From Flavobacteriaceae bacterium (GTDB taxonomy: Bacteria; Bacteroidota; Bacteroidia; Flavobacteriales; Flavobacteriaceae): a stretch of DNA of 64,000 nucleotides. Under the pieces are notes generated by a model. That model ran no database searches. It saw nothing but the letters and a program-made list of their open reading frames with translations, and was not told where the DNA came from. Shown one piece after another: positions 29,893 to 46,732 of the stretch. Each line of letters begins with the position of its first letter. Within the stretch, counting starts at the first letter, position 1. Where the stretch lies: positions 9,106 to 73,105 of the forward strand of contig JAHEMY010000001.1 in NCBI GenBank assembly GCA_024643425.1, read 5' to 3'. Position numbers and translations under genes: made by a program.

Positions 29893-30600
29893 TTATCTAC
29901 GTGATAAAATGCTTAAGATATACCAAAAAAGGAGCATTAAGGAAGCAAATAATCCTAATGAAGCTGCTACATATTGATCTTCACTGTATTCATGCACAAT
30001 GTTTGATGTTTGGTATAAAATAGATCCTGCGGCTAGTATGATCATGCCCACACTAAACCACAAACCTAAATTAAACCCAAATAATACTCCGGCTACAATA
30101 AGTCCCAACGCAATAAAGAAACCAACTGCCAAAATTGAACGAAGAAAAGAGAAATCTTTTTTGGTAACCAGGACAATGGCCGATAAACCGGCAAATAAGG
30201 AAATTGTAAGGATTGCCGCCTGATTAATTAATTCGGCTCCTCCATCGGCGGCATAATAGATGGCAATATAAATTAGAGGAATAAAAATAAAGGCCTCCGC
30301 TACTACATAAATGAGCAATGCGATGTATTGTTTGTTGCGATCGTGCTCCTTTAATGCCATCTTTTCGGCGTAATTGGTAATAAACATAAAGCCTCCCAGC
30401 ATCACTAACCACGTCCACCCTTGGGTTAACGACAAGGCAAATTCCAACAAGGCCGGAATTTGAAAAAATATAGTTTCAACTGCAATAAACATAAGCACTG
30501 CCAAAGCCACGTGGCTATAAGTTTTTCTGTAAAAGGCCGCACGTGCTTCGGTTGATAAAGTAGCGACACTGGGATAGGCATTCGATTGAATTTGATTCAT
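29893..30600 (-). CDS. Bax inhibitor-1/YccA family membrane protein
   Basis: Seven TM segments, N-terminal ...FYRKTYSHVALAVL..., charged C-terminal end. Confidence 0.75.
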   Translation of the reverse strand: MNQIQSNAYPSVATLSTEARAAFYRKTYSHVALAVLMFIAVETIFFQIPALLEFALSLTQGWTWLVMLGGFMFITNYAEKMALKEHDRNKQYIALLIYVVAEAFIFIPLIYIAIYYAADGGAELINQAAILTISLFAGLSAIVLVTKKDFSFLRSILAVGFFIALGLIVAGVLFGFNLGLWFSVGMIILAAGSILYQTSNIVHEYSEDQYVAASLGLFASLMLLFWYILSILSRR

Positions 30601-30626: not shown

Positions 30627-31157
30627 TTACTTACTACTTTCTCCCTTGAAATGCTGAGAGTTGTTTTTAAACAAGATATTAAACGTAGTTAGGGAACCAT
30701 AACATCTTGTAATATATTGCTGAAGGTCTATTTTATCGGATTCTTCTAATGTGCTACTCGCATTGATTTTTTGTTCCATGACGCGCAATCGATCCCGAAG
30801 CATCACAATTTTATGAAAAAAAGTGTCGATAGGAATTTCTTTATTACTGAGGCTCGAATCCTTCGGCTGTAATACGAGGGTTCCCCCTTTAAATTTATCA
30901 GCGATGGGAACAATTTCACTTACATCGCTCCATCGTCGCAACAAATCTCTCATGGTGCGTTCTACTTCATAAAAGGAAATGGCATCTAAATCGTCTTCGG
31001 AAGCTTCAATAATTTCAAAATCATCTTCGTGTGGAATAGTCTCTAAACCATTCTCAATAAAGGTGACCCAATACATTTTTCGGTCTACATTGGTTACCAC
31101 TCCTTTCCCAAATTCGGGATGATTTATTCTTGAGCCAATTGCTAATAAGGGTTGCAT
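30627..31157 (-). CDS. Hypothetical protein with N-terminal small beta (Tudor/SH3-like, HxxFGxGxV) motif
   Basis: The INHPEFGKGVVTNV motif resembles the small beta domain at the C-terminus of UvrD/PcrA-like proteins. The rest is helical. Confidence 0.4.
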   Translation of the reverse strand: MQPLLAIGSRINHPEFGKGVVTNVDRKMYWVTFIENGLETIPHEDDFEIIEASEDDLDAISFYEVERTMRDLLRRWSDVSEIVPIADKFKGGTLVLQPKDSSLSNKEIPIDTFFHKIVMLRDRLRVMEQKINASSTLEESDKIDLQQYITRCYGSLTTFNILFKNNSQHFKGESSK

Positions 31158-31280: not shown

Positions 31281-31730
31281 GTGAGTTTACAGAATGAAAT
31301 AATGGATGCCTTAAAAACGGCGATGAAAGAAAAGAATACGGTAGCCTTGGAATCGTTGCGAGCCGTAAAATCTGCGCTTTTGTTGGCTCAAACTCAAAGT
31401 GGTGCAAAAACAGAACTTTCCGAAACTGACGAAGTAAAATTACTTCAGAAGTTAGTAAAACAACGCAAGGACAGTGCTGCTATTTTTAGTGAACAAGGAA
31501 GAAACGACTTAGCCGAGCCAGAACTGGCACAGGCAGCGGTAATCGAAAAATTTTTACCGGAGCAAATGAGCTCTGAAGAAATTGAAAAAGTAATCGAGCA
31601 AATTATATCCCAGTCAGGAGCAAACTCTATGAAAGATATGGGAAAAGTAATGGGAATGGCTAACGCCCAAATGGCTGGAAAGGCAGATGGTAAGACCATC
31701 GCTGCTTTGGTAAAAGAAAAGTTAGGGTAA
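31281..31730 (+). CDS. yqeY: GatB/YqeY domain protein
   Basis: (GTG)SLQNEIMDALKTAMKEKN...LESLRAVKSALLLAQT...; ends ...ADGKTIAALVKEKLG. Confidence 0.85.
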   Translation: MSLQNEIMDALKTAMKEKNTVALESLRAVKSALLLAQTQSGAKTELSETDEVKLLQKLVKQRKDSAAIFSEQGRNDLAEPELAQAAVIEKFLPEQMSSEEIEKVIEQIISQSGANSMKDMGKVMGMANAQMAGKADGKTIAALVKEKLG

Positions 31731-31733
31731 AAA

Positions 31734-31807
31734 GGCCGCGTGGCGCAACTGAATAGCGCATCAGATTTCGGCTCTGAGGGTTGGGGGTTTGAATCCCTCC
31801 GCGGTCA
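31734..31807 (+). tRNA. tRNA-Arg (anticodon UCG)
   Basis: Hand-folded cloverleaf. 7-bp acceptor (GGCCGCG/CGCGGTC, one G-U), D stem GCGC/GCGC, anticodon stem TCAGA/TCTGA with loop TT-TCG-GC, 5-nt variable loop, T stem GGGGG/CCCTC, discriminator A. No encoded CCA. Confidence 0.85.
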
Positions 31808-31809
31808 CA
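31792..31809 (+). repeat. Direct repeat copy 1 (tRNA 3' end; att-like core)
   Basis: AATCCCTCCGCGGTCACA, identical to 31964-31981. Confidence 0.9.
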
Positions 31810-31820
31810 TCAAGCAGCAT

Positions 31821-31849
31821 CCCGGTGATAACTCACCGGGATTTTTTTT
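31821..31849 (+). terminator. Rho-independent terminator after the tRNA
   Basis: Stem cccggtga/tcaccggg, loop taac, 8-T run. Confidence 0.85.
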
Positions 31850-32037: not shown

Positions 32038-32670
32038 CTATCTATTGCCATAGGCAATGTGAACCCATTTAGTACTTCCACTTTCAATTACTTCTCCGAT
32101 TACTTTTACCATCTGATTTCTAAAAATCACATCTCCATTTCTCGAAGTATTCGGGAATTCAGGTTTCCCCATAACGCCATTTCGCACATTCATATCCATA
32201 TTGGAGATGTACAAATTATTTTTGGAAATTGAAGGTACACCATCCAACATGACCGGTTCATCAGGAAATCCTTTAGTATCTTCAAATTTCTTATACAAGG
32301 TTCTTCCACTGGATTCTTTTAGTTGAACATAGCCCGTTTTTGGGTACAGTGCGTTTATGTTCACAAGAGTCTTGATGTAATAATCTCCTTCTTGTCCAAA
32401 ATTTGATAAATAGCTTTTATAGGATTTAAAGGAGTTGGTTGTTTTTGCGACATTAAAATAGATACTATCTGTTGCTCTGGACAAAGCTTCTAAATGACTC
32501 TTATTCACTTCGTATAAAGAATCGATTTCGTCTTTTTGCTGCTTCAATTCGGTATTAGATTCAAGCAGCTTGGATTCACTAATCTTTAAGTCGTAGGAAT
32601 ACTTTACCACCAGGGCAAATAAAACAAAGATGGAAATGGTAAGAATGGCAACAATCGCTCTAAATTTCAT
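32038..32670 (-). CDS. Membrane-anchored coiled-coil protein with C-terminal SH3b-like domain (hypothetical)
   Basis: N-terminal TM (AIVAILTISIFVLFALVV), heptad-like stretch (SKLLESNTELKQQKDEIDSLYEV), C-terminus MNVRNGV...GDVIFRNQMVKVIGEVIESGSTKWVHIAY. A 6-bp gap separates it from the upstream gene. Confidence 0.55.
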   Translation of the reverse strand: MKFRAIVAILTISIFVLFALVVKYSYDLKISESKLLESNTELKQQKDEIDSLYEVNKSHLEALSRATDSIYFNVAKTTNSFKSYKSYLSNFGQEGDYYIKTLVNINALYPKTGYVQLKESSGRTLYKKFEDTKGFPDEPVMLDGVPSISKNNLYISNMDMNVRNGVMGKPEFPNTSRNGDVIFRNQMVKVIGEVIESGSTKWVHIAYGNR

Positions 32671-32676
32671 AGTTCT

Positions 32677-32988
32677 TTATTTTATGTGAATGGCTGCTTG
32701 CCTTCTTGATCTAATTAATACAACGATGAGTAATGCGAGTAGTACAAAAAAGCCTCCTGCGGCAAAACTTGCAATAAAATTGGCTGGATTTAACACTAAA
32801 AAAACCAAGGAGGCAATTGCAAAAACCCCCATCAGCACCATAAAAAACTTTATCACAAATTCGACGTCTTTAGAGTTTGCTTGCGCCCCAAATACATTTA
32901 TGGTTTTTTGATCGCCAATGGTTACATTTCCCTGGGACTCAATGGTGGTTCCTTCTACTGTGTTTTTTTTGGTTGTTTGTTCGGTCAT
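32677..32988 (-). CDS. Small membrane protein: N-terminal KNT..EG..GN..IGD module plus two TM helices (hypothetical)
   Basis: Residues 8-26 are KNTVEGTTIESQGNVTIGD. TM1 is FVIKFFMVLMGVFAIASLVFLVL and TM2 is FIASFAAGGFFVLLALLIVVLI, with a basic C-terminal end RSRRQ. Confidence 0.55.
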   Translation of the reverse strand: MTEQTTKKNTVEGTTIESQGNVTIGDQKTINVFGAQANSKDVEFVIKFFMVLMGVFAIASLVFLVLNPANFIASFAAGGFFVLLALLIVVLIRSRRQAAIHIK

Positions 32989-33018
32989 AGTTAGATTTAA
33001 ATTATCACGCTTTCATGT

Positions 33019-33474
33019 CTATCCATCTCCAAGCGTAAAGTCGCCTCCTCCTTTTATCGTAACATCCTTCATTGTATTTTTTTCATCATAGTGATCTTGA
33101 CCGGGAGCCCTATCACCAATTTTAATGTTTCCACTGATATCCAAATTAGCCCCTTCTATCGTGTTTTTTCGGGTTATCACATTATTCATCGAGGGGTTTG
33201 GTTTCTTAGATTCAGCAATCCATTTTTGAAGTTCAATTCTAAATTGATCGTCCTTGATCATTTCACTCATTACGTCCTCGACTTCTGCCTGCACTTCCGG
33301 TGATTCCGGAGCTTCTTCCATTTGTTGAATTAAGGATACCTTATCGCTTTTTTTAAACCATCCACGCATCCACTTCACCGAGCCCGAAACAAAATCGTCA
33401 ATAGCGTTATTCACCTCCTTATTCTTGGCACAAGTGTTTACTAATAATCCCAGTCCGAGGGTAATTAATTCCAT
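33019..33474 (-). CDS. Small hypothetical protein with acidic helical centre and two C-terminal KNT..G..IGD-type modules
   Basis: Hydrophobic N-terminus MELITLGLGLLV, acidic stretch EEAPESPEVQAEVEDV. Module copies are at residues 103-121 (KNTIEGANLDISGNIKIGD) and 132-150 (KNTMKDVTIKGGGDFTLGD). Confidence 0.55.
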   Translation of the reverse strand: MELITLGLGLLVNTCAKNKEVNNAIDDFVSGSVKWMRGWFKKSDKVSLIQQMEEAPESPEVQAEVEDVMSEMIKDDQFRIELQKWIAESKKPNPSMNNVITRKNTIEGANLDISGNIKIGDRAPGQDHYDEKNTMKDVTIKGGGDFTLGDG

Positions 33475-33680: not shown

Positions 33681-35060
33681 TTATGATAACAAGGTTTCAT
33701 CTAAAAAAGTCAAAAACTCATCCTTGGAGTTTTCGGGTTCGAAGAATGCATTATAGACCCAAGCACCGCGATCGAAACATTCCATTTTATATCGAATCCC
33801 AGCTTTTTTTGAAACCTTCAAATAGTATTTTTTAGACTCTTCAAGCTTGGCCAAATAAATGTTTGCTTCCGCCAAGGTTGCCCATTTACTTGCTGTGGGG
33901 TACAAATAATTTGAAGCCCCTTGTACAGCCTTCGTGGCATACTCTCTCATCTCCCTTCGATCAAGATCTAATTTTGCATATAGGAAAGCTACTTTCACTG
34001 CGTTTGTGAATATTTGTTCTTCATCATTAGTAGACAAGGCAAGTTCGTACGCTTTTTTGTAGGTGGCCAAGGTCTTTTCCCCATCTTTTTGCCCCTTACT
34101 TCTCAAGTATTGATTTCGATACAAATCTCCTAGCAATTCCAATAAATCGGGATCCTGATGTGTTTTCTTATTTTTTTCAAGTTGATGCGTAGCGTCGTCC
34201 ACTCGCCCAACAGCTTCCATTGCTTTTATGAGTTTTATGTAATTATCTTCATCCAAGTCTTCTATTTTCGGTTCCAAATCGATAATAGTCGATTCGAAAT
34301 CCTCTTTATTTCTTGGAAAGAAACTCAAAATGATATTTTCCGACATCTGTGTTTTGAAAAAAGGTGTTTGCACGCATGGGTTATCGTCGTCATCAACACA
34401 TTCTGCCGCTCTTTTTGGCACTTCTTCAAAAATGTACTCGACCACATCCATGATGCTTATTTCAGGGTCGATAAAAGGGCGTCTGTGTTTGCCGGAGAGT
34501 ACTTCCAATAAACATTGGGTAAAGAAACTTTCATTATTGTATCCATAGGATTTTTGATTATCCTGACAAGAAGCCATCACCCAAATACCCTGTTCGTCGT
34601 TTAACTTTTGGGCCATTCCATAAAGCCCTTTAATTCCTGTTTGAATCATCCCTTCAGCATGACAACAGTCTAAGAATAACACCAATCGACTCGATGGTAG
34701 TGCATTTACTTTTTCCTTCAGTTCTTCCGCAGTGACCCAGGTTTTTTTATAATTTTCAGCGGTCATTCCGTAGGGTTGCAGAAAAAACTTGTGTTCATCT
34801 CCAAACTTTCCACCATGCCCCGAGTAATAAAGAATGATCGAAGATTCTTCATTTGTTTTTTCCTTCAAGGTATCAAAGGCTTTTAGGATTCCTTGGCGGG
34901 TAGCCTTTTTTTCAGTTAGTAGAATTACATTTTCCTTTGGATACCCAACAAGTTTCTTATTTGTAATTGATTTGTACAAGTTCTGAGCATCTTTCACGGT
35001 ATAGGGTAAATCGTCCCCAACCCCTATGATTAATGCATAGGTGTTATTGCGGTTTTCCAT
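33681..35060 (-). CDS. Caspase-like (peptidase C14) protease fused to a C-terminal all-helical TPR-like domain
   Basis: YALIIGVG..., His in ILYYSGHGG (H82), Cys in VLFLDCCHAEG (C133), then WVMASCQDNQKSYG...FFTQCLLEVLSG. Residues ~275-459 are helical repeats (LLGDLYRNQY..., SKWATLAEANIYLAKLEESKKYY). Confidence 0.8.
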   Translation of the reverse strand: MENRNNTYALIIGVGDDLPYTVKDAQNLYKSITNKKLVGYPKENVILLTEKKATRQGILKAFDTLKEKTNEESSIILYYSGHGGKFGDEHKFFLQPYGMTAENYKKTWVTAEELKEKVNALPSSRLVLFLDCCHAEGMIQTGIKGLYGMAQKLNDEQGIWVMASCQDNQKSYGYNNESFFTQCLLEVLSGKHRRPFIDPEISIMDVVEYIFEEVPKRAAECVDDDDNPCVQTPFFKTQMSENIILSFFPRNKEDFESTIIDLEPKIEDLDEDNYIKLIKAMEAVGRVDDATHQLEKNKKTHQDPDLLELLGDLYRNQYLRSKGQKDGEKTLATYKKAYELALSTNDEEQIFTNAVKVAFLYAKLDLDRREMREYATKAVQGASNYLYPTASKWATLAEANIYLAKLEESKKYYLKVSKKAGIRYKMECFDRGAWVYNAFFEPENSKDEFLTFLDETLLS

Positions 35061-35095: not shown

Positions 35096-37171
35096 TCATT
35101 GCCAAAATTTCATGACACGATCAAAGATTTGGGTTTGAATATAAGGCTGAAAATGTATATCGTATTGAAAGGCTGAAGGAGTATATCTTTTTCCCGAGGC
35201 CACTGCTTTGAGCAAATAATCCATTGCTTCTTTTTCATTTCCTGCAGCAGCATAATATTGGGCCATTCCATAGTCTACCCAACCAAATTGAAAATTTGTA
35301 CGACTTGCATCCAATTTCGATAAATACCTTTGAGCCTTTTCAGAAGCTCCGAGTTTCATCGAAGCGATTGCCAAATAAGGTAAATAATTTATCGCGTCAG
35401 ACTTCTCATACAGCGCTTCATATAACTGCTCGGCTTTTCGATAATTCCCAAGATAATAATAAGCCAAAGGCAATAATTCACGCTCTTCATCTGAAATGGA
35501 ATTCCAATTTTCTTCCAAAGATTTGATTACCTGATTATAATACAGTGATGCAAAGTCACTTTTCCCTTGAATAAAAAATTCTTTCCCTGAAAACAAAGTG
35601 AATGCATGCCATCGTTCGGAGGTATTGTTCAATTTGATACTCGCTAATAAATCATCGACTGCATTCTTATTTCCATTAACAACATATGCCCTTAATAACG
35701 CTTCCTTCACCCATTCGTTACCTTTCAATCGTGAGAAAGGTTCGAGCAACTCGATTGCTTTGTCCATCTCTTTTAATTCGATATAGGCCAAGGCCATTAT
35801 ATAATTTCTAAATTCACAAGAACGGCATTTCTGAAAGTCCATATCTTTCATAGAAAGGGCATTGTAAATTCCCTCCACATCTTCCGGTTTATTGACAAAC
35901 TGCATCGCCAGTACCATAGCGCCGCTATTATTCTCCAGGTTGAAAGGTTCAATGTTGTATTCCTCCTTAAAATAAGTATAGGCATTTCTATTATTCCCTT
36001 TCAGTAAAGCATCATAAAAATTCAACAAATTCATTTGCCTCTTATTATTGCTTGTTTCTTTTGCCAATAAGTGATGGAGGGAATCTGCCACAGCGAATTG
36101 ATCTTGGTTGTAATAGTATTCAATTCGATCTACTTTTGGCTCGAAGTAATTTGGATCAATCGCTATGGCTTCGTTCAATAAGGTTAAATATTCAGGATCA
36201 ATGTTTGAATACTTTGTATGCGCTTCTAATAGCAACTGGTAGGCTTCAAAATTAGGAGGTGTTTCTTCAAATCCTATTTCACTTTCATTCTCCATGACCA
36301 AGTACCCTAAAATACGCTGTTTTAAAGCTTCAATACAATCTAAGGGTGCATTGGGGTCGCAGGTAACTGGTTCGAACGAAATAAGCGTCTTACTCATGGT
36401 ATTGTCCACAATGGAACACTGCACTAACAAGGAGCCTTTACTTAGATAATAAGTACCATTAATAATTTTTGAGGGTTTCAGATAATCTTTGAGAATTCCT
36501 TGATCACCCGCAGTGTTTTTTGAAGCCAACATGACGCTGGAATAATCTTCAATTATTTTAGGGGATATTACCTGCCCCACTTTATTTTGTGTAATCCCAT
36601 GCATAATCCAATCGACCGCCATCTTCCCTACAACATCTAACTTATCGTTAAGGGTATTATTTTCAAATTTTAAAACCGCTATTTTATTTCCCTCTTCAGG
36701 AGTATTTAATAAAGGAATTCCGGCAACTGCGGTTTCACCTGGCTCCACAAAGTTCGCGCGCACAATCAATGAAGCCGACAATAGTGCGATCATAGAGATC
36801 ACTAAAAGGAACGTAAAATACATGCGTTGGAAATTGCTTCTAAAGCGAAATCCAAGAATAGTTTTTGAATTTTTCTTATTCAACTCAATGGCAGATTTTG
36901 CTGAAGCTTTTCGGGGTCGAGCACCTGAAGCCTCCTCCATGCCATGATCTTTCAAAGGTTTTAAACGAAATTTCCAGATTAAATAAACATAGAACGGAAA
37001 CCCAATTAATAGGACAAGAAGAAGGTAAGTCATTGCTAATTTGGGTAAACCGAAAGGTTCTCGAAGCACAGACAACACTTGAAGCAACAACCAACTAGAA
37101 ACAAGGTAAATAGAAAGGTTTTTAAAAACCTCTTTCTCATGACATTCATTAAAAAAATCCTTTATTTTCAT
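35096..37171 (-). CDS. Membrane-anchored TPR-repeat protein with TolB-N/FlgO-like juxtamembrane module
   Basis: Three TM segments in the first ~140 aa, then IAVLKFENNTLNDKLDVVGKMAVDWIMHGI, then ~400 aa of TPR-like helices. It ends 35 bp before the caspase gene start. Confidence 0.65.
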   Translation of the reverse strand: MKIKDFFNECHEKEVFKNLSIYLVSSWLLLQVLSVLREPFGLPKLAMTYLLLVLLIGFPFYVYLIWKFRLKPLKDHGMEEASGARPRKASAKSAIELNKKNSKTILGFRFRSNFQRMYFTFLLVISMIALLSASLIVRANFVEPGETAVAGIPLLNTPEEGNKIAVLKFENNTLNDKLDVVGKMAVDWIMHGITQNKVGQVISPKIIEDYSSVMLASKNTAGDQGILKDYLKPSKIINGTYYLSKGSLLVQCSIVDNTMSKTLISFEPVTCDPNAPLDCIEALKQRILGYLVMENESEIGFEETPPNFEAYQLLLEAHTKYSNIDPEYLTLLNEAIAIDPNYFEPKVDRIEYYYNQDQFAVADSLHHLLAKETSNNKRQMNLLNFYDALLKGNNRNAYTYFKEEYNIEPFNLENNSGAMVLAMQFVNKPEDVEGIYNALSMKDMDFQKCRSCEFRNYIMALAYIELKEMDKAIELLEPFSRLKGNEWVKEALLRAYVVNGNKNAVDDLLASIKLNNTSERWHAFTLFSGKEFFIQGKSDFASLYYNQVIKSLEENWNSISDEERELLPLAYYYLGNYRKAEQLYEALYEKSDAINYLPYLAIASMKLGASEKAQRYLSKLDASRTNFQFGWVDYGMAQYYAAAGNEKEAMDYLLKAVASGKRYTPSAFQYDIHFQPYIQTQIFDRVMKFWQ

Positions 37172-37570: not shown

Positions 37571-37602
37571 AAAAAAAAGAGGCGATTGTATCGCCTCTTT
37601 TT
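37571..37602. terminator. Bidirectional rho-independent terminator (ends the dcw operon after ftsZ)
   Basis: 8-A run, stem agaggcga/tcgcctct, loop ttgta, T-run. Confidence 0.85.
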
Positions 37603-37643: not shown

Positions 37644-39686
37644 TTAGTCTACATTATCGTGTAAGAAAGAATTGTTTGAGCGCAAATCAATATCGTCATC
37701 ATCTGTATTTACGGAAGTTCTTGATAATTTTGTATCCTCCGAACTCGTATCGTCCAATTCGATTCCCATTCTTTTATAAGCCGGTTGCTTTTCAATGTCT
37801 TCAATCTTGGAAGCACTATTTCTAAACTTATAGTTAAACTCCTTCATTTTCCGCTTTCGTTCTTCCGTGCGATCACTTAATAATTTGGAAATTGGTGAAT
37901 TAATAGGATCTGCAGGCTCGTTAGAATTTCCTTCTTTTTCAGGCGCTTCAACCGTTTTGGTTTTAAACTGAAGTGCTTCTTCTGCCACTTCTTTCGATTC
38001 TTTTGGCTTCGCATTATTAAGTTGCTCTTCCATTTCTTCGTAATCGTCTAAACTATAGCGCTTCACTCCTTTATCGGAGATCTCAGTAATAGGAATAATC
38101 TCCACAGCTTTTACCTCAATATCTTCAATTTTTCGAACCAAAAGCTCAGGTTCGTCTTCCACTTTTTGAACCTCTCTAGATTTTGTCTTTTTGGGTCCAT
38201 CACTCTTTCTTTGAATTGGTAGATCAAACATCAACATTTGTTCATCCATGGGTTCCTCTACAAACTCATCCGATTCTTCCACCATTTTTTGCGGTAAATC
38301 CTCTTTGAGTTCAACAATTTCAAAATCGTTCACATCAATTTCATTGATTTGCAACTGCTGAAATTCGGCCAAGTAGTGAATGTCTACATAACTTGCATCC
38401 ACAGGCAGGTTTTTTAGAAATTCTGAAGTCTCAATATATCCTTCAAAGGGCAATTCTTTTTCTGAGGTTTGCTCTTGATTTGAAGATGTATGTTCTTCCT
38501 CTTCAAAATCTACTTCAAACAAGGTATGACGAATTACAGGTGCTTCTTCAACTTCAACTTCAGCCTCTGGCGCATCTACTGTTTCCTCTTCTATTATTGG
38601 ATCTTTATCTAAAGCAGGGCTTAGGTTGTGTACCGCCTTTTGCTCGTCCTCAAGTGTATGGATGATTTTCTTAGCCTCCGTATTTACGATTTCATTTTGT
38701 TGTTCTGCATTAAACCCCGTGGCGATTACTGTAATGGAAATTGCTCCTTCCAAGGTATCATCTTCTCCAACCCCCATTATGATGTTAGCGCTATGACCGG
38801 CTTCTTCCTGAATATGGTCGCTAATTTCTCCAATTTCATCGATGGTAATTTCCTCCGTCCCAGAGACAATAAGAAGCAATACGTTTTTCGCACCCTTAAT
38901 TTTATTATCATTTAGAAGGGGCGAATCGAGGGCTTTATTAATAGCATCCTTGGCGCGGTTTGAACCAATGGCAGTTGAACTTCCCATAATAGCAGTTCCA
39001 CTATCCGCTAAAACCGTCTTTGCATCTCTAAGGTCAATGTTTTGTGTGTAATGATGTGTAATTACCTCTGCAATACCTCGAGCTGCAGTAGCCAACACTT
39101 CATCTGCTTTTGAGAAACCTGCTTTGAATCCAAGATTCCCATACACCTCACGTAATTTATTGTTATTGATAACAATAAGAGAATCAACATTATTTCTCAA
39201 GTTTTCAACTCCAATATGGGCTTGGTCATTTCGTAGTTTCCCTTCAAACTGAAAAGGAATGGTTACAATACCAACGGTAAGAATATCCAATTCTTTGGCC
39301 ATACGGGCAATAATAGGTGCAGCTCCTGTTCCCGTACCACCTCCCATTCCGGCAGTAATGAAAATCATTTTTGTATTGGTAGAAAGCATTTCTCTAATTT
39401 CTTCCATGCTTTCTACCGCAGACTGCTCACCAATTTTAGGGTTCGCGCCTGCTCCTAATCCTTCGGTTAACGACACCCCCAATTGAATTTTAACGGGGAC
39501 CGGACTGTTTTCCAAAGCTTGAGAATCGGTGTTACAAATAACAAAATCAACGCCTTTAATCCCCTGACTAAACATGTGATTAATGGCATTACTTCCTCCT
39601 CCACCTACGCCTATAACCTTAATAACATTGGATTGGTTCTTTGGCAGGTCGAAGGAAATGTTGTCAAATTCTGTGTTGCTGCTCAT
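37644..39686 (-). CDS. ftsZ: Cell division protein FtsZ with ~330-aa acidic linker
   Basis: GVGGGGSNAINHM, the tubulin signature GMGGGTGTGAAP, and the C-terminal peptide ...NNSFLHDNVD. Confidence 0.95.
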   Translation of the reverse strand: MSSNTEFDNISFDLPKNQSNVIKVIGVGGGGSNAINHMFSQGIKGVDFVICNTDSQALENSPVPVKIQLGVSLTEGLGAGANPKIGEQSAVESMEEIREMLSTNTKMIFITAGMGGGTGTGAAPIIARMAKELDILTVGIVTIPFQFEGKLRNDQAHIGVENLRNNVDSLIVINNNKLREVYGNLGFKAGFSKADEVLATAARGIAEVITHHYTQNIDLRDAKTVLADSGTAIMGSSTAIGSNRAKDAINKALDSPLLNDNKIKGAKNVLLLIVSGTEEITIDEIGEISDHIQEEAGHSANIIMGVGEDDTLEGAISITVIATGFNAEQQNEIVNTEAKKIIHTLEDEQKAVHNLSPALDKDPIIEEETVDAPEAEVEVEEAPVIRHTLFEVDFEEEEHTSSNQEQTSEKELPFEGYIETSEFLKNLPVDASYVDIHYLAEFQQLQINEIDVNDFEIVELKEDLPQKMVEESDEFVEEPMDEQMLMFDLPIQRKSDGPKKTKSREVQKVEDEPELLVRKIEDIEVKAVEIIPITEISDKGVKRYSLDDYEEMEEQLNNAKPKESKEVAEEALQFKTKTVEAPEKEGNSNEPADPINSPISKLLSDRTEERKRKMKEFNYKFRNSASKIEDIEKQPAYKRMGIELDDTSSEDTKLSRTSVNTDDDDIDLRSNNSFLHDNVD

Positions 39687-39719
39687 ATGGTTTTACTTTT
39701 TGTGAGGTTGTTCTTTTTC

Positions 39720-41060
39720 TTATTCTGCATTATCAAGGAATTCTTTAAATTTTTCAGCCCATCTGTCAAAGAATCGTTTTCCACCACTGGTCTGCGGCTC
39801 TTTATAGGTTTTTTCATTTACATCGGCTTCAATTTCTGAACCATCATTTTCTTTAGATCCTTCGGATTCATCGGGTATAATTGGAGCCTGGTTTTTTATT
39901 TTACTGTTTAAACTACTCAACACCAATCCAACTGCCGTGGCATACATAGGGCTGGTTGTTTCGCTATCGCTGTCTCCGGCAAGATGTTCATTTGGATATC
40001 CTATACGTGTATCCATTCCGGTAATGTACTCCACCAATTGTTTCAGGTGTTTCAGTTGAGCTCCCCCTCCAGTGAGTACTATTCCGGCAATCAACTTCTT
40101 TTTTTGTTCTTCATGACCGTAGTTCTTTATTTCGAGGTAGGCCTGTTCAATAATTTCAACAACCCGGGCATGGATAATTTTTGAAAGATTTTTCAGCGTA
40201 ATCTCCTTAGGTTCTCGCCCTCGTAATCCCGGAATCGAAACTATTTCATTGTCTTTATTCTCGCCCGGCCATGCTGAACCAAATTTAATTTTAAGCAGCT
40301 CGGCTTGCTTTTCGATAATCGAACATCCTTCTTTGATGTCTTCAGTAATCACATTCCCTCCAAAAGGGATCACAGCGGTATGCCTGATTATACCATCTTT
40401 AAAAATGGCTAAATCTGTAGTACCACCACCGATATCGATCAATGCTACTCCCGCTTCCTTCTCCTCCTGGCTTAAGACAGCATTTGCCGATGCCAATGGC
40501 TCCAGTGTGATTCCCGACAATTCTAATCCGGCACTTTTAACGCAACGTCCTATGTTTCTTATCGATGAAACCTGTCCTACTACCACATGAAAATTTGCTT
40601 CCAAACGACCTCCATACATTCCTATGGGTTCCTTTATTTCAGCCTGCCCATCGACCTTATAATCCTGGGGTAACACATGGATAATTTCTTCTCCGGGTAG
40701 CATCACCAATTTATGGACCTGGTTACACAGGCGATCGATATCCTCGTCATCAATTACTTCATCACTATTGGCACGCGTTATATAATCACTGTGTTGTAAA
40801 CTACGGATATGCTGTCCGGCGATGCCTACAACAACATCCTGTATTTTCATACCTGAGGAAGTTTCAGCATCTTGAACTGCCTGCTGAATGGATTGAATGG
40901 TTTGGGTGATATTATTTACCACTCCTCTATGAACTCCAAGGCTTTTGGACTTTCCAATGCCCAGGATTTCCATTTTGCCATAATCGTTTTTACGACCAAT
41001 CATTGCCACAATCTTTGTGGTCCCAATATCCAATCCTACGGCAATGTTTTGATTTTCCAT
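39720..41060 (-). CDS. ftsA: Cell division protein FtsA
   Basis: Actin-fold motifs (VGLDIGTTKIVAMIG, ALIDIGGGTTDLAIF, GIVLTGGGAQL). Confidence 0.9.
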   Translation of the reverse strand: MENQNIAVGLDIGTTKIVAMIGRKNDYGKMEILGIGKSKSLGVHRGVVNNITQTIQSIQQAVQDAETSSGMKIQDVVVGIAGQHIRSLQHSDYITRANSDEVIDDEDIDRLCNQVHKLVMLPGEEIIHVLPQDYKVDGQAEIKEPIGMYGGRLEANFHVVVGQVSSIRNIGRCVKSAGLELSGITLEPLASANAVLSQEEKEAGVALIDIGGGTTDLAIFKDGIIRHTAVIPFGGNVITEDIKEGCSIIEKQAELLKIKFGSAWPGENKDNEIVSIPGLRGREPKEITLKNLSKIIHARVVEIIEQAYLEIKNYGHEEQKKKLIAGIVLTGGGAQLKHLKQLVEYITGMDTRIGYPNEHLAGDSDSETTSPMYATAVGLVLSSLNSKIKNQAPIIPDESEGSKENDGSEIEADVNEKTYKEPQTSGGKRFFDRWAEKFKEFLDNAE

Positions 41061-41062
41061 GA

Positions 41063-41779
41063 TTATATTTTTGACGCAACTACCTGGTTTCCAAATCTTA
41101 AATCAACCAGCTGATACTCTGCACTTTTATTATCCTTTTTTATTTTCTGAAAAAACGCCTTAAAATTTTTAAACTTTACCTCCATATTTTCTATGGAACC
41201 GAATAGCACTTTAAAACTTTGTTTTCTCAAATTCAGAATTACCTCTCCGTTTTGCTTTTCATGAATTCCGGTCACCAATTGATTCAAAACTGAATCGTTC
41301 TTTATTTTAATCAGCAATGGTGTTAATTCAGTAAAACCATTTTTCGAGCTTCCTGAAATCAGAGGGACCCTCGCCGAATACACATTGGATAGGGGCATCT
41401 CTTTTCCGTCTTCATCAATATAATAATTGGCCGAACCTGCCACTCGAGCAATGGGATTTCGTTGTTCAATTTGTGCTCCCAATACACCATCAATTGTAAC
41501 AAAAACCTGAGCTTTCCGCACCATAGGGTTTTGTCTTAGCCTCCCTTCCATCTCTTTCAAAACTAAAGTTTCTTTAGGGATGCTCGTAATTGAGTCATTA
41601 CTTTGTATTAACAATTTATTAACCGTTGCCAGCGTAATAAAAGGTTGATGATCGTCTACAAAATTGATCTTCACATCGGTGATATTTCGACGTTCGTTCC
41701 GTTGTTTTGCAAAACTCATTAAAAAAGCCACTAAACCAAGCAAAACAAAGAGTTTTATGATGCCCCAATTAATTCTCAT
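41063..41779 (-). CDS. ftsQ: Cell division protein FtsQ-like
   Basis: A single N-terminal TM, a POTRA-like region, and its position between murC and ftsA. Confidence 0.7.
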   Translation of the reverse strand: MRINWGIIKLFVLLGLVAFLMSFAKQRNERRNITDVKINFVDDHQPFITLATVNKLLIQSNDSITSIPKETLVLKEMEGRLRQNPMVRKAQVFVTIDGVLGAQIEQRNPIARVAGSANYYIDEDGKEMPLSNVYSARVPLISGSSKNGFTELTPLLIKIKNDSVLNQLVTGIHEKQNGEVILNLRKQSFKVLFGSIENMEVKFKNFKAFFQKIKKDNKSAEYQLVDLRFGNQVVASKI

Positions 41780-43124
41780 GGCTTAGATATTTAGTTATTT
41801 TCATTACTTCCGTTCCGATATCTCCGGCACCCACCATAAGTTTAATCTTACATGAGGACCGATCTATTTTTTCGATTAATTCTTCACGACGCACCAATGC
41901 CTTTTTCGGGTTTGAAATTTGTTTCAATAACCATAACGAATTCACACCATCCATAGGCAATTCCCTTGCGGGATAAATATCCATAAGCAGCACTTCATCA
42001 AATTGCGATAAACTTGCAGCAAATGCCTCGGCGAAATCTCTAGTTCGGCTAAATAAATGCGGTTGAAATACAATGAGTTTTTCCTCGTTTGGGTACATTT
42101 CCGTAACCGCTTGATAAAGGGCATTAATCTCTGTTGGATGATGCGCATAATCATCGATTAATACCAAATCTTCCGTTTTTATTCGGTAAGAAAATCGACG
42201 TTGAACACCTTTAAAAGATAACAAAGCTTTGGGCAGGCCGGGTAATGGGGTTCCCGCAATTATGGCCATACCCAAAGCTGTTACCGCATTTTGTAGGTTA
42301 TGATGTCCGGGCAGTAAAAATTTTAAATTATATAGAACTTCGTTAGGTGTTTTTAGGTTAAAAATATAGGCGCCATCTTCAATACGAACGTCTTGAGCTT
42401 CGTAGTCGGCCGTTTCATTTACACCTACCTCTTTTCCGTTTAAGGGCAATCCTTTCTTCACAAGAAGATGTTCCCGATTAGGCACCAAATCTGCAAAGTC
42501 TTTAAAGGATTTTTCCAATTCACTTGCTGCGCCATAGATATCCAAATGATCTGCATCCATAGAGGTTACACAAGCAATTGTTGGATGTAATTGCATAAAA
42601 GAACGGTCAAATTCATCGGCCTCCACCACCGTAATTGCATCGCCATTATAGATAAAATTGGATTGATAATTTTCTGCAATTCCTCCTAAAAATGCCGTGA
42701 CCGGCATTCCCGAAGCGGCCAACAAATGCCCTAAGATGGCTGAAGTGGTAGTTTTTCCATGCGTTCCGGCTACCGCGATACAGGTGGAGTCTTTGGTAAT
42801 CTCCCCCAAAAGTTTGGCTCTTTTTACGACCTCAAAATCATGAGTTCGAAAATAGTCCATGAGCCTACTGTCTTTTGGAATGGCCGGTGTATAAACCACT
42901 AAAGTGTTTTCTTTTGAAAGCTTATAATCGGCCAACACCTCCGGATGATCATCGAAAGTGATAATCATTCCTTCAGCAATGAGTTGCTCTGTGAGCTCCG
43001 AGGGTGTTTTATCGTATCCGTAGATTGTTTTGTTGAATTTATTTGCATAACGAGCCAATGCACTCATACCAATCCCTCCGATTCCGACGAAATACAATTG
43101 CGTTATGTTGGCGAATGGCTTCAT
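41769..43124 (-). CDS. murC: UDP-N-acetylmuramate--L-alanine ligase
   Basis: [36 protein letters not shown]. Confidence 0.9.
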
Positions 43125-44218
43125 CGAGGCTCGTTTAACAATTTTTGTATTTCCGAAACAATTGCTTTGGTCGCATTTGGTTTGGCTAGCTTTTTAATGT
43201 TGGAAGACAATTTATTTTGCAGGCTTTCATCGTCCATTAATTCCTTAAATCTCAAAGTAAACTGCGTACTTAACTCTGACTCTTTCAACATAATAGCAGC
43301 ATCCTGACCAACAATGGAAGCAGCATTCTTAGTTTGATGATCTTCTGCTACATTGGGCGAAGGAATAAAAATCACCGGCTTTCCGACCAAGCAAAGTTCT
43401 GATACAGAAAGCGCACCTGCTCTTGATATAATAAAATCGGCAGCTGCATAAGCCAAATCCATCTTATTTAGAAAAGCATGCACTTGCACTTCACCATGGC
43501 TATATCCCTTATAACTTTCAAAATAATATTTACCACACTGCCAGATTACTTGAACTCCCAAATCTTTAAACATTTCCAGGGAATCATAAATAAGCTGGTT
43601 GATTCTTCCGGCCCCTAAACTACCGCCTAAAACCAGCAGTGTCTTTTTTGATTTATCCAATTGGAAAAACTCCAAAGCTTCATTTCTTTTCGAAGCGATT
43701 TCCAAAAGATCTTGTCGTACCGGATTGCCTGTCTCCACAATCTTTTCCGCTGGAAAAAAACGATCCATATTTGGATAAGCCACACATATTTTTCGAACTC
43801 TTTTGCTAAGCCATTTATTTGTTATTCCTGCATGGCTATTTTGTTCTTGAATTAAACAAGGGAGCTTTCGCATCGAAGCTACCCGTAGTAGTGGTGCACT
43901 TGCATATCCTCCCGTACCAATCGCGACATCCGGTTTAAATGCATTGATTATTTTTCGAGATCTTATCAGGCTTGACGCCAACTTTAACGGAAATGCTAAA
44001 TTCTGCAATTTCAAATTTCTCTGAAGTCCAGAAATCCAAAGGCCTTCTATTTTAAATCCGTTTTGAGGCACCTTTTCCATTTCCATTCGATCCTTGGCAC
44101 CTACAAATAAAAATTCGGCAGTTGGGTATTGCAATTGCAACTCTTTTGCAATGGCAATAGCCGGGTAGATATGACCTCCCGTCCCTCCTCCTGATATGAT
44201 AAATTTATAAGGCTTCAC
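43121..44218 (-). CDS. murG: Undecaprenyldiphospho-muramoylpentapeptide beta-N-acetylglucosaminyltransferase
   Basis: [17 protein letters not shown]..., [12 protein letters not shown], ...EDHQTKNA. Confidence 0.9.
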
Positions 44219-45395
44219 TTAATATATCTAATGGATTCTCTTCCTTTTCTTCTTTCAATACTACTTCTCGTTTGGCACTTACACTCAAAATCATTCCCAA
44301 GGCTAAACAGGTCATCCAAATGGAAGTACCCCCACTTGAAATTAGTGGCAAGGTCTGCCCGGTTACCGGAAACAATTCAACAGCAACCGCCATATTGATA
44401 AGCGCTTGAAAAATAATGGGTAAGCCAACACCCACAACCATTAACTTTCCGAAAAAGGAAGTGCTTTTATGTACTACGATCACTAAACGAAATAACAGCA
44501 ACAAATAAAGAAACAATAGAAATAAGGCTCCCGCCAAACCAAACTCTTCAACAATTACGGCGTAAATGAAATCGGAAGAAGATTGCGGCAAGAAATTCTT
44601 TTGAACACTCTTCCCGGGTCCTAAACCAAATACACTCCCCGAAGCAATGGCGATTTTGGCTTTTTCAATTTGGTAATCGGCTTCGGTATCCTTTTTGTCC
44701 GTAAAATTTTCAATTCGACTCATCCAGGTATCCACGCGGTTCGGGAATACACCGGGAAATGCTTTTGCACTTAGCACGAAAAGAGTTAGAAGAACAAGTC
44801 CCGCACCCAGAACAATGCCTAAATAACGTAAAGGATATCCTCCGATAAATACCAAGACGACTACCATCGTAAAGATGATGGCCGTAGTTGAGAAATTCGC
44901 CGGTAAGATCAATGCCAAAACTAAAAATACCGGTGTCCACAGAGGTAATAAAGTCTCTTTGAAAGTAACTTCCTTATCTTTTATTCTTGATAAATACCGC
45001 GCAACGTAGGTAAGTAAAACAACAGACGCCAAAGTAGAAGTTTGGAAAGTGACCCCAACAAAAGGAACTCGAATCCAACGACTCGCATTTGCTCCATCGA
45101 TTGTGGTTCCTTGGCTTAAGGTTATTAAAAGCAAGACAACCACTATAGGCAAAGCAATAATCGACAAACCTTTAAAATAATGGTAGGGAATTTTATGGAC
45201 CCCATACAAAATGGCGAATCCCAATAATAAATGCGCAAAATGTTTAATTAAAAATTTAAAGGTATTTCCATCCCCATACATATAAGCCAGGTTACTACTT
45301 GCACTGTAAACCGGCAAAAATGAAAATAAGGCCAAAACGCCTACTACGGCCCAAATCGCTCTATCTCCTTGTATGTAATGAAACAAATTTTTCAT
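44205..45395 (-). CDS. ftsW: FtsW/RodA/SpoVE-family peptidoglycan glycosyltransferase
   Basis: A 10-TM SEDS pattern with ...[18 protein letters not shown]... Position in the dcw cluster. Confidence 0.85.
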
Positions 45396-46732
45396 TATAA
45401 ATTTCTTACGGCATTTTTAAATTGTCTTCCTCGGTCCTCGTAATTTTCAAAAAGATCGAAGCTTGCACAAGCCGGAGACAACAACACGGTATCTCCTTTT
45501 TCAGATAAGCGATAGGCAACTTGAACCGCATCTTGCATGCTTTCAGTTTGCACCAGCATATCCACTACATTACCAAAAGCGTTGATGATCTTATCATTAT
45601 CCACACCTACACAAATAATGGCCTTTACTTTTTCATTAACCAAGGGAAGTAATTCGGTATAATCATTCCCCTTATCTACTCCTCCTACAAGCCATACCGT
45701 AGGACCTTCCATACTTTCCAGTGCATAATACGTTGCGTTTACATTGGTAGCCTTGGAATCGTTGATGTACAAGACATTATTAATTTTCAATACGTTTTCC
45801 AAACGATGTTCAACCCCTTGAAAATGTTCCATCGATTGTCGGATGGTATCTTTGCGAATGCGCAATAAGGTGGCTACAGTCGAGGCTGCCATAGCATTTT
45901 TTAAATTGTGATTTCCGCTTAGTGCAAGTGTTGATATTGGCATAGTGAATGTGTTATGTTCTGTTTTTATTATGATTTGTTTGTTTTCTAAATAAGCGCC
46001 CTTTTCAAGTTTCTTTTCAATTGAAAAAGGCAATTTTTGAGCGGCAATAGGATGGTTTGAAAGCCATGTATTAATAAATTCGTTGTCTGCATCGTATATG
46101 AAATAATCTTCCGGACCTTGATTCATTGTAATTCTAAATTTGGAAGCGATGTATTCATTCATATCGTAATGATATCGATCCAAATGGTCGGGTGAAATAT
46201 TTGTAAGCACTGCGATGTGAGGCTTAAAACTTTCGATTCCGTCCAACTGAAAACTGCTTATTTCCAAAACGTAATTCTCATAATTACCCTCTGCAACCAG
46301 CTGCGCGAAACTTTTTCCAATATTTCCTCCCAATGCAACATTCAATCCCCCCTGCTCCAATAGATAATGTGTTAAGGTTGCCGTGGTGGTTTTGCCGTTG
46401 CTACCGGTTATACCAACCATTGTTGCTTTGGTGTACTGCGCTGCAAATTCAATTTCTGAAATCACAGGAATCCCAGCTTTTTTTAGCTGAAGCACTACAG
46501 GTGCTTCATCTTTAATTCCCGGACTTTTCATTACCACATCGGCATTCATAATTTTCGCTTCTGAATGACCTTCCTCTTCCCATTCCAACTCATGATGTAA
46601 AAGAACTTGTTTATAAGTTTCTTTTATTTTACCGAAGTCTGAAACAAAGACTTCAAATCCTTTTTGTTTTCCCAAAATGGCAGTCCCTACGCCACTTTCT
46701 CCTGCACCCAATATCACTAATCGCTTGCCCAC
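45395..46732 (-). CDS. murD: UDP-N-acetylmuramoylalanine--D-glutamate ligase
   Basis: ILGAGESGVG, GITGSNGKTTTA, ...NDSKATNV. Confidence 0.9.
   Translation of the reverse strand: MGKRLVILGAGESGVGTAILGKQKGFEVFVSDFGKIKETYKQVLLHHELEWEEEGHSEAKIMNADVVMKSPGIKDEAPVVLQLKKAGIPVISEIEFAAQYTKATMVGITGSNGKTTTATLTHYLLEQGGLNVALGGNIGKSFAQLVAEGNYENYVLEISSFQLDGIESFKPHIAVLTNISPDHLDRYHYDMNEYIASKFRITMNQGPEDYFIYDADNEFINTWLSNHPIAAQKLPFSIEKKLEKGAYLENKQIIIKTEHNTFTMPISTLALSGNHNLKNAMAASTVATLLRIRKDTIRQSMEHFQGVEHRLENVLKINNVLYINDSKATNVNATYYALESMEGPTVWLVGGVDKGNDYTELLPLVNEKVKAIICVGVDNDKIINAFGNVVDMLVQTESMQDAVQVAYRLSEKGDTVLLSPACASFDLFENYEDRGRQFKNAVRNL

Follow-up and report, generated by a model that had tools for sequence, protein, structure and literature searches.

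Introduction

Bacterial amyloid signalling has so far been linked with multicellular lineages, and its defining feature is the pairing of a Bell-type effector with an NLR-like or other large cytoplasmic receptor. The motifs involved, the bacterial amyloid signalling sequences BASS1 to BASS10, were defined by Dyrka et al. 2020 (bioRxiv 10.1101/2020.01.06.895854); some Bell-side proteins carry them in two copies, as HET-s does, and they also occur on TIR, CHAT and hydrolase effectors. Repetition on the Bell side is frequent for BASS4, and by grammar HET-s is closest to BASS4 (Dyrka et al. 2021, datasets paper, PMC8086366). The tested members that form fibrils and prions are BASS1 and BASS3, BASS4 lying outside that tested set. 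Here, we describe a BASS4-type cassette in a 64,000-nucleotide stretch of DNA from a Flavobacteriaceae bacterium (GenBank assembly GCA_024643425.1, contig JAHEMY010000001.1, positions 9,106 to 73,105 of the forward strand; hereafter the window, with positions counted from its first letter). A 19-residue motif occurs twice in a 151-aa protein, which is most likely a Bell-type executioner by analogy with described systems, and once in a 103-aa membrane protein encoded by the next gene, so that BASS4 would here couple an effector to a very small membrane protein in an apparently unicellular flavobacterium.

The two proteins resemble described BASS4/Bell pairs, in which the Bell-side member is small and helical, has an acidic residue 2 and begins with a hydrophobic helix; its C-terminus bears a motif of ~20 residues, often doubled, and one copy stands at the N-terminus of the adjacent collinear product. 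The BASS4 spacing, N-x10-G-x-h-x-h-G-[DN] (h, hydrophobic), is identical here. Unlike those pairs, the present locus has a 103-aa two-helix membrane partner instead of an NB-ARC or NACHT protein with TPR or WD repeats, and a third membrane protein is co-conserved with it. The host also differs, being flavobacterium-like, whereas Dyrka et al. 2020 emphasise filamentous Actinobacteria and Cyanobacteria.

A receptor outside the NLR class has a precedent in Escherichia coli, where the Bell-type protein Bab and the non-NLR receptor Agp signal via BASS11 in phage defence; in Bab, four helices cup hydrophobic helix 1, and the acidic residue 2 and the helix-1 glycine are both essential (Ibarlosa et al. 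2024, bioRxiv 10.1101/2024.11.07.622273). Bab/Agp is, like the pair described here, a two-gene amyloid-motif pair with a non-NLR receptor, and BASS11, like the present motif, also occurs with TIR, CHAT and effector-associated domains (EADs); it differs in that the motif belongs to another family, BASS11, and is present in single copy. EADs themselves couple an effector and a neighbouring gene product through small non-catalytic modules, with effectors swapping freely (Kaur et al. 2020, PMC7159879; 2021, PMC8195603). The present motif shares this coupling principle, and its repeats share polypeptides with EAD11, caspase, TIR, PNP and trypsin domains. However, EADs are globular, of ~80 residues or more and mostly helical, whereas the module described here is a 19-residue β unit in a 2+1 arrangement. 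The window proteins had no match among Pfam EAD1 to EAD11, EAD11 being in relatives a separate domain after the repeats, and the texts of PMC7159879 and PMC8195603 make no mention of amyloid, β-helix, EAD11 or TPR-S.

Results

Three copies of one motif in two adjacent genes

The gene for the 151-aa protein (33019..33474, minus strand) encodes a putative Bell-type helical domain followed by two BASS4-type repeats. After 30 bp comes, on the same strand, the gene for the 103-aa partner (32677..32988), which consists of a tail with one repeat and a two-helix membrane hairpin. The repeats of the 151-aa protein are r1, KNTIEGANLDISGNIKIGD (residues 103-121; 33112-33168), and r2, KNTMKDVTIKGGGDFTLGD (residues 132-150; 33025-33081), and the single copy of the partner is r0, KNTVEGTTIESQGNVTIGD (residues 8-26; 32911-32967), all on the minus strand. 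The r1-r2 region ends one residue ahead of the stop codon, and the product of the next gene has r0 from residue 8 onwards. In the 103-aa protein, r0 is continued by a conserved extension, xKTINV[YF]G (residues 27-34), the two together spanning 32887..32967. A preliminary description of this DNA, made from the letters alone, had noticed a 19-residue module common to two neighbouring small proteins and doubled in one of them; we found all three peptides exactly where it had placed them, and recounting reproduced its figure of 10/19 identical residues for r1 and r0. The corresponding identities are 9/19 for r2 and r0 and 6/19 for r1 and r2, within a common frame K-N-x10-G-x4-G-D.

This similarity exceeds what composition would give: the best ungapped 19-mer between the 151-aa and 103-aa proteins has a BLOSUM62 score of 62, whereas shuffled versions of the 103-aa protein scored 19.7 +/- 4.0 and peaked at 45, 0/2000 shuffles reaching 62. 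In a six-frame translation of the whole 64-kb window, r1, r2 and r0 were the sole matches to the loose pattern [KRH]N..G..[ILVF]GD. The K, N, G and G-D positions show little or no variation in both repeats of the 151-aa family (52 sequences) and in the single copy of the 103-aa family (61 sequences), and 268 distinct units gave the consensus K-N-[VIT]-[VIL]-x-x-x-x-[ILV]-x-[AVI]-x-G-[DN]-[FVI]-x-[IL]-G-[DN]. Orthologues form ~50 clusters for the 151-aa protein and ~60 for the 103-aa protein; the few that bear organism names are Bacteroidota, mostly Flavobacteriaceae, e.g., Gilvibacter, Eudoraea and Muriicola.

The three copies are three distinct motif classes. Among 96 two-repeat proteins, r1 is acidic at unit positions 4, 7 and 9 in 72, 51 and 82%, and r2 is basic at the same positions in 72, 43 and 76%. 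Within one protein, the two repeats carry opposite charges at these positions in 72/96, 41/96 and 71/96 cases, and like charges in at most 2/96. Opposite charges are what would be predicted if r1 stacked in register on r2, and the observed pattern fits this expectation. Because r0 is acidic at positions 4, 7 and 9, resembling r1, it may provide the surface bound by r2. For 12 loci, cognate r0 and r1 are more similar than non-cognate pairs (55.1 vs 50.8; permutation p = 0.005), and r0 and r2 had no cognate excess in the same comparison. As this test takes no account of how the loci are related, the r0/r1 co-variation lends only modest support to a matched pair.

Predicted folds of the motif and of the putative Bell-type protein

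AlphaFold2 (AF2), run with the family alignment, modelled the 151-aa protein with a mean predicted local distance difference test score (pLDDT) of 78. The N-terminal domain (residues 1-95; 33190..33474, minus strand) has five predicted helices, at residues 2-20, 27-42, 46-54, 59-72 and 76-89, with pLDDT values of 64-88 within residues 2-89. The repeats follow, r1 with predicted strands at 104-107, 110-113 and 117-119 and r2 with strands at 133-136, 139-142 and 146-148; pLDDT in this region is mostly 73-84 and lower at r2 and the inter-repeat linker. The model thus predicts that r1 and r2 form two three-strand β-solenoid rungs separated by a low-confidence linker of 10 residues, and the unit is most likely one rung of a small triangular β-solenoid of BASS4 type. 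The preliminary description had read the alternating residues as a β-hairpin; the β character is borne out by the model, while a hairpin falls short of the predicted three-strand rung.

The sequence of the N-terminal domain has traits expected of a Bell domain. Hydrophobic helix 1 begins MELITLGLGLLVNT (start MELIT), and the N-terminal consensus of the 151-aa family is MEL[IV][TS][LIM][GS][ILV]G, in which E2 is nearly invariant (at least 90%) and G9 is invariant; E2 and G9 would be the counterparts of the essential acidic residue 2 and helix-1 glycine of Bab. Judged from published descriptions, the 151-aa protein shows the sequence signature of the Bell 'MEPIS' region: residue 2 or 3 is acidic, and helix 1 is conserved, hydrophobic and includes a glycine. 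Pfam, NCBIfam and PADLOC, none of which holds a Bell model, contain no family for the 151-aa, 103-aa or 210-aa proteins; Bab and the 151-aa protein of the window had no detectable match in sequence or fold; profiles of the unit and of the 151-aa family found no meaningful match among PDB sequences; and a Foldseek search of PDB with the 151-aa model returned nothing below E = 1.3, HET-s (rank 7, E 5.2) and Rx-CC (rank 11) being among the non-significant rows.

A parallel for the arrangement of the repeats is HET-s/HET-S with NWD2 (fungal HRAM; PDB 2RNM, 2KJ3), in which, as here, two pseudo-repeats follow a helical membrane-targeting domain and the partner has one copy. HET-s shares the register N-x15-G-[ND] with the motif described here, and the charge complementarity of r1 and r2 can be likened to that of HET-s, whose r1 and r2 Wasmer and colleagues reportedly described in 2008 as forming comparable salt-bridge ladders. 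When a position-specific scoring matrix (PSSM) of the motif was scanned along HET-s, it ranked HET-s r2 first and r1 second, in register (p = 0.019 vs shuffled HET-s), a weak resemblance that agrees with the published grammar result placing HET-s closest to BASS4. Homology to HET-s was nevertheless not detected: the unit profile had no HET-s hit in PDB at E <= 10, hhalign against HET-S gave a probability of 0.4%, and Foldseek placed HET-s at the E value stated above. The two systems also differ in that the motif here has its middle hydrophobic position two residues away from that of HET-s, in that the linker has 10 instead of 15 residues, and in that the partner is not an NLR.

The motif belongs to BASS4

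The preliminary description could not place the motif in any family; it can now be assigned to the published BASS4 family, on a Bell-type protein. The file for class C06 of the PMC8086366 datasets, which the accompanying README equates with BASS4, holds an entry A0A1Y0MPC2_9FLAO, ITKKNVVKDANIEVAGNVKIGDKNSDGSNYDQ, and this peptide is, letter for letter, residues 100-131 of P0020, the Gilvibacter sp. SZ-19 orthologue that is 57% identical to the 151-aa protein of the window. Since this orthologue sits in a file of Bell-side fragments, its presence there also supports the Bell assignment indirectly. We built a BASS4 hidden Markov model (HMM) from 100 other BASS4 entries, the flavobacterial entry being excluded, and it matches the repeats in register: scores of at least 3.9 bits were obtained for 124/265 collected proteins vs 8/2650 shuffles, and scores of at least 8 bits for 37/265 vs 0/2650. 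When the long open reading frames (ORFs) of the window were scored, the 151-aa and 103-aa proteins alone exceeded ~2 bits, one unrelated ORF reaching 2.0 bits. Two relatives, P0223 and P0228, which have typical cyanobacterial BASS4 repeats, were retrieved by the 151-aa family profile. The arrangement is that of BASS4 at all loci, with the motif C-terminal on the Bell-type protein and again N-terminal on the product of the adjacent collinear gene; the NLR-like partner of that arrangement (NB-ARC or NACHT with TPR or WD repeats) is absent here, its place being taken by the 103-aa protein. By sequence, then, motif and effector belong to known families, BASS4 and Bell-type, respectively.

An assignment to the BASS3/RHIM/PP motif, with its G-h-Q-h-G core, was rejected, as an HMM of 100 published BASS3 sequences reached at most 7.3 bits and matched short stretches only. 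Flavobacterial peptides of the same motif type as that of the window, e.g., KSKNVNTGNVNTQGGNFRIGDD and NSKNVITGNVNTGGGNFINGD, have been placed in the BASS3 and BASS2 classes (files 36 and 38, PMC8086366) and resemble the single-copy proteins P0192 and P0149. The published class assignment of Bacteroidota sequences looks inconsistent, and the scatter of such peptides over the BASS2 and BASS3 files suggests that they are peripheral catches and not a recognised group.

The partner is a two-helix membrane protein

AF2 predicts for the 103-aa protein a transmembrane helical hairpin (residues 39-97; 32698..32874, minus strand) with helices at 39-66 and 71-97 and pLDDT values of 80-88, preceded by residues 1-38, which include r0 and are disordered in the monomer model (pLDDT below 50). 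Neither the Pfam scan nor the AF2 model revealed an NTPase domain. The pairing of a soluble with a membrane protein proposed in the preliminary description is therefore sustained, the 151-aa protein being modelled as helical plus β. Because the C-terminal tail past the second helix is positively charged, r0 is probably cytoplasmic. In every locus long enough to show it, a gene of the 103-aa type adjoins the two-repeat gene. A metagenome scan with the 103-aa family recovered only 2 loci, and a scan of viral contigs recovered none. On a contig in SRR23867505, one membrane partner (P0264) has two N-terminal copies, KNKLTDTEIEAGGNVSIGD and KNKLKDSDIDSGRDTHIGD, ahead of the hairpin; the two genes that flank it still encode 150 and 201 aa.

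Conserved gene order and exchange of effectors and partners

In 8/8 genome loci recovered with the 151-aa family, as well as on other contigs, the order is two-repeat gene, one-repeat two-transmembrane gene and third membrane-protein gene. In the window, the third component is a 210-aa protein encoded at 32038..32670 on the minus strand, 6 bp after the 103-aa gene. Most loci encode a clear homologue of it; the product is diverged in L003 and L005, and the ORF is shorter in L006 and L007. The 210-aa protein has an N-terminal membrane anchor, a coiled-coil-like segment judged by eye and a conserved C-terminal domain, for which one homologue hints at a bacterial SH3-like fold (E 0.043). As a short basic N-terminus precedes the anchor, most of its mass probably lies outside the cytoplasm.

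An exhaustive profile search yielded 178 representative relatives, in which the motif is combined with a range of effectors. The helical domain and two repeats are followed by one of caspase, CHAT, trypsin or EAD11; further architectures are CHAT with two repeats, TIR_2 with two repeats, PNP_UDP with a repeat and EAD11, and caspase with three repeats and EAD11. The partners vary along with them. In L009 and L016, TIR_2 with two repeats is followed by a 107-aa one-repeat two-transmembrane protein and a ~200-aa homologue of the 210-aa protein, and in L017 a TIR-like 215-aa protein with two repeats is followed by a one-repeat two-transmembrane gene and a 210-aa-type gene. In L019 and L020, the protein encoded after CHAT with two repeats has 211 aa, a single membrane helix and a copy of the motif at its N-terminus; in L018, the helical domain, two repeats and caspase precede an EAD11 protein of 138 aa, likewise with a copy at the N-terminus; and in L021, the helical domain, two repeats and trypsin are accompanied, two genes downstream, by an EAD11-like protein with an N-terminal copy. 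Downstream of the cyanobacterial-type relative P0228 is a P-loop NTPase, at whose N-terminus a copy was recognised by eye but given no score by the model. The two-copy side thus varies in effectors and the one-copy side in receptors or adaptors. The suggestion in the preliminary description that the module works as a homotypic adaptor is strengthened by these loci, in which two copies stand on the effector and one on the product of the next gene in at least five architectures, and the motif occurs together with caspase, CHAT, TIR, trypsin and EAD11 domains.

Some features of these relatives stand apart. Directly upstream of the TIR-like trio of L017 lies a gene for a 1178-aa DUF4062-nSTAND1-LRR NTPase (L017:133-3669) in which the motif is absent. 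On two independent contigs, the TIR-type trio comes after a gene for GTP cyclohydrolase I (L009:2307-2903 and L016:1881-2477), a placement that may reflect synteny or a functional link. Between the last repeat and EAD11, P0090, P0094, P0097 and L021:3216-3539 share a conserved strand-like segment, D-[IV]-[IV]-[ST]-G-N-x-x-V-x-[IV]-x-H-N-Y-[FY], which may be a cap or an extra half-rung. One hit, P0170 (5033 aa; 16 matched stretches, VEVEGDIKLGDKE), was discarded as an AHNAK-like eukaryotic repeat protein and a compositional false positive, and P0052 is probably a chimeric assembly.

Accessory genes and surroundings of the cassette

In the window, the trio is preceded on the minus strand by genes for a 459-aa protein with a caspase domain (Peptidase_C14) and TPR-S according to Pfam (33681..35060) and for a 691-aa membrane protein with TPR (35096..37171). 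The five-gene block opens with the latter gene, which has a terminator-like site upstream at 37574-37602. These two genes accompany the trio in five loci only (the window, L001, L002, L004 and L015) and hence are lineage-specific accessories. The caspase domain of the window is 36% identical (E 4e-43) to that of P0093, where it forms one chain with the helical domain and repeats. In Muriicola jejuensis, two tandem paralogues of the 691-aa gene lie upstream of the caspase gene (L004:847-5364), and L006 and L007 have a distant 691-aa homologue (~25% identical) on the opposite strand.

The adjacency of a caspase gene raises the question of whether the motif is a protease site or degron, with K-N and G-D as cleavage or recognition sites and both small proteins as substrates of the neighbouring caspase-like protease. 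In favour of this, the next gene upstream encodes the caspase-TPR-S protein, caspases of its clade occur elsewhere in fusion with the module, and bacterial caspase homologues often cleave after basic residues. However, motif and trio are equally conserved in L003, L005-L009, L016 and L017, where the caspase is missing, and the hydrophobic periodicity together with the charge complementarity of r1 and r2 indicates a folded β structure. We regard this explanation as very improbable.

The five-gene cassette lies directly downstream of a complete division/cell-wall (dcw) cluster (murD, ftsW, murG, murC, ftsQ, ftsA, ftsZ; 37644-46732, minus strand), and the window and L001 have this ftsZ-proximal position in common. 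It could be taken to indicate that the trio is a membrane-attached structural element tied to the dcw cluster, i.e., a cytoskeletal or division scaffold built on a bactofilin-like β-helix, all the more as the 210-aa protein has weak matches to ZapG-like, ZapB and FtsL_2 families (E 0.02-0.06). Bactofilins (PF04519) form β-helices of short triangular rungs of ~18 residues with conserved turn glycines, and the preliminary description had named a match to them or to other β-helix repeats as evidence against its reading. Yet there was no Pfam match to bactofilin at E <= 1, no solved bactofilin chain at E <= 10 and no PDB sequence match to another common β-helix repeat. Unlike bactofilin, each window protein has at most two rungs, and the module is linked and fused to TIR, caspase, CHAT, trypsin and EAD11 domains of conflict systems. 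In addition, the trio has unrelated neighbourhoods in L003 and L005-L009. A role as a division scaffold is accordingly hardly credible to us.

On its other side, the cassette ends close to a tRNA-Arg gene (anticodon TCG; 31734-31808, plus strand) and a terminator-like hairpin (31819-31842); the cassette could have inserted at this tRNA. A YqeY/GatB-like gene (31281-31730) adjoins the tRNA gene. Further away, the minus strand at 29893-30600 encodes a membrane protein of the Bax inhibitor-1 family (Pfam Bax1-I, E 3e-29); its distance from the cassette is ~1.4 kb, and a 176-aa ORF without a Pfam match (30627-31157) lies between the two.

Discussion

Here, we identify a BASS4-type motif that is present in two copies on a putative Bell-type effector and in one copy on an adjacent two-helix membrane protein, in a gene order that is retained across loci while the effectors and partners are exchanged. 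On balance, we lean towards a model in which templated β-stacking couples a membrane-side trigger to polymerisation of the effector and cell death, with the 103-aa protein as the receptor-side partner. The motif with its three classes, the predicted fold, the gene linkage, the domain swaps and the BASS4 membership are results of the present analysis; templating, trigger and lethal output are inferred by analogy with HET-s, the BASS systems and Bab/Agp, and the precedent of Bab/Agp, in which a non-NLR receptor signals to a Bell-type protein, counts for this model. In the resting 151-aa protein, hydrophobic helix 1 would presumably be sheathed by the other helices, and r1 and r2 would stack on each other. 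The trigger would be sensed at the membrane by the co-conserved 210-aa protein and, in the lineage of the window, possibly also by the caspase-TPR-S and membrane-TPR proteins, and would let r0 take the rung fold. The acidic face of r0 would thereby be offered to the basic r2 of an effector, which would stack there, and more effector molecules could then join through alternating acidic and basic stacking of r1 and r2. Polymerisation would switch the effector on: the Bell domain would free helix 1 and damage the membrane, while in sister systems proximity would activate TIR, CHAT, caspase and trypsin domains. Regulated cell death, probably as abortive infection, would result.

The principal alternative is that the three copies form a static tether. 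In that case, r1, r2 and r0 would make up a stable three-rung hetero-solenoid that docks the soluble protein (Bell-type, TIR or CHAT) onto the membrane protein in a 1:1 complex, with neither templating nor polymerisation, regulation being exerted elsewhere, e.g., through caspase cleavage or the 210-aa protein. The charges are compatible with such a complex, a basic r2 between acidic r1 and r0 being a neat closed three-rung unit, and so are the folding of r1-r2 within the AF2 monomer, the natural single chains with two or three repeats directly before EAD11, and the two N-terminal copies of the membrane partner P0264. However, the TIR, caspase, CHAT and trypsin effectors fused to the repeats are enzymes that usually become active when brought close together or oligomerised, which a 1:1 complex would not achieve. 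The motif, moreover, is in the BASS family, tested members of which (BASS1 and BASS3, not BASS4) form fibrils and prions, and a solenoid of two or three rungs would, to our knowledge, be unusually small for a stable fold. We therefore judge the static tether to be unlikely, though the most serious of the competing explanations.

Several observations also weigh against templated signalling. Neither the structure nor the sequence of these proteins has a significant match to HET-s, Bab or any solved structure, and the window copies score just 4.3 bits (r1) and 3.9 bits (r0) on the BASS4 HMM. The motif is rich in charged residues and not in Q/N. Because r0 is acidic, its self-stacking, and with it the classical nucleation route through an oligomerised receptor, looks unfavourable. 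The r0/r1 co-variation was computed with the kinship of the loci ignored. Helix 1 is strongly hydrophobic in the Flavobacteriaceae subfamily only and amphipathic in distant relatives, and in some relatives the helical domain stands N-terminal to caspase, CHAT or trypsin, which is odd for a pure executioner. Finally, fibrils, templating and toxicity are ascribed to this family purely by analogy.

While the motif and the effector fall into known families, three aspects of the system appear to be undescribed in the published accounts consulted here: a membrane mini-protein as the one-copy partner, a fixed third membrane gene beside effector and partner, and the breadth of effector and adaptor swapping around the motif in Bacteroidota. 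Building on templated signalling, we tentatively put forward, as a conjecture that may well prove wrong, that the locus encodes a membrane-embedded, NTPase-free amyloid-signalling receptor, in which the two-transmembrane mini-protein and its partner membrane protein sense an envelope or membrane event and seed BASS4 polymerisation of interchangeable effectors, i.e., a Bell-type pore former, TIR, CHAT or caspase. If the templating mechanism holds, the receptor side, a membrane hairpin with a 19-residue tail, would be the smallest known, and screens that demand an NB-ARC or NACHT neighbour would have undercounted such systems. The ~1.4 kb three-gene cassette would offer a tractable model for the path from trigger to templated polymerisation, including activation of the TIR and caspase type. 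Unicellular marine Flavobacteriia would then possess a compact three-gene abortive-infection system that is invisible to NLR-centred screens.

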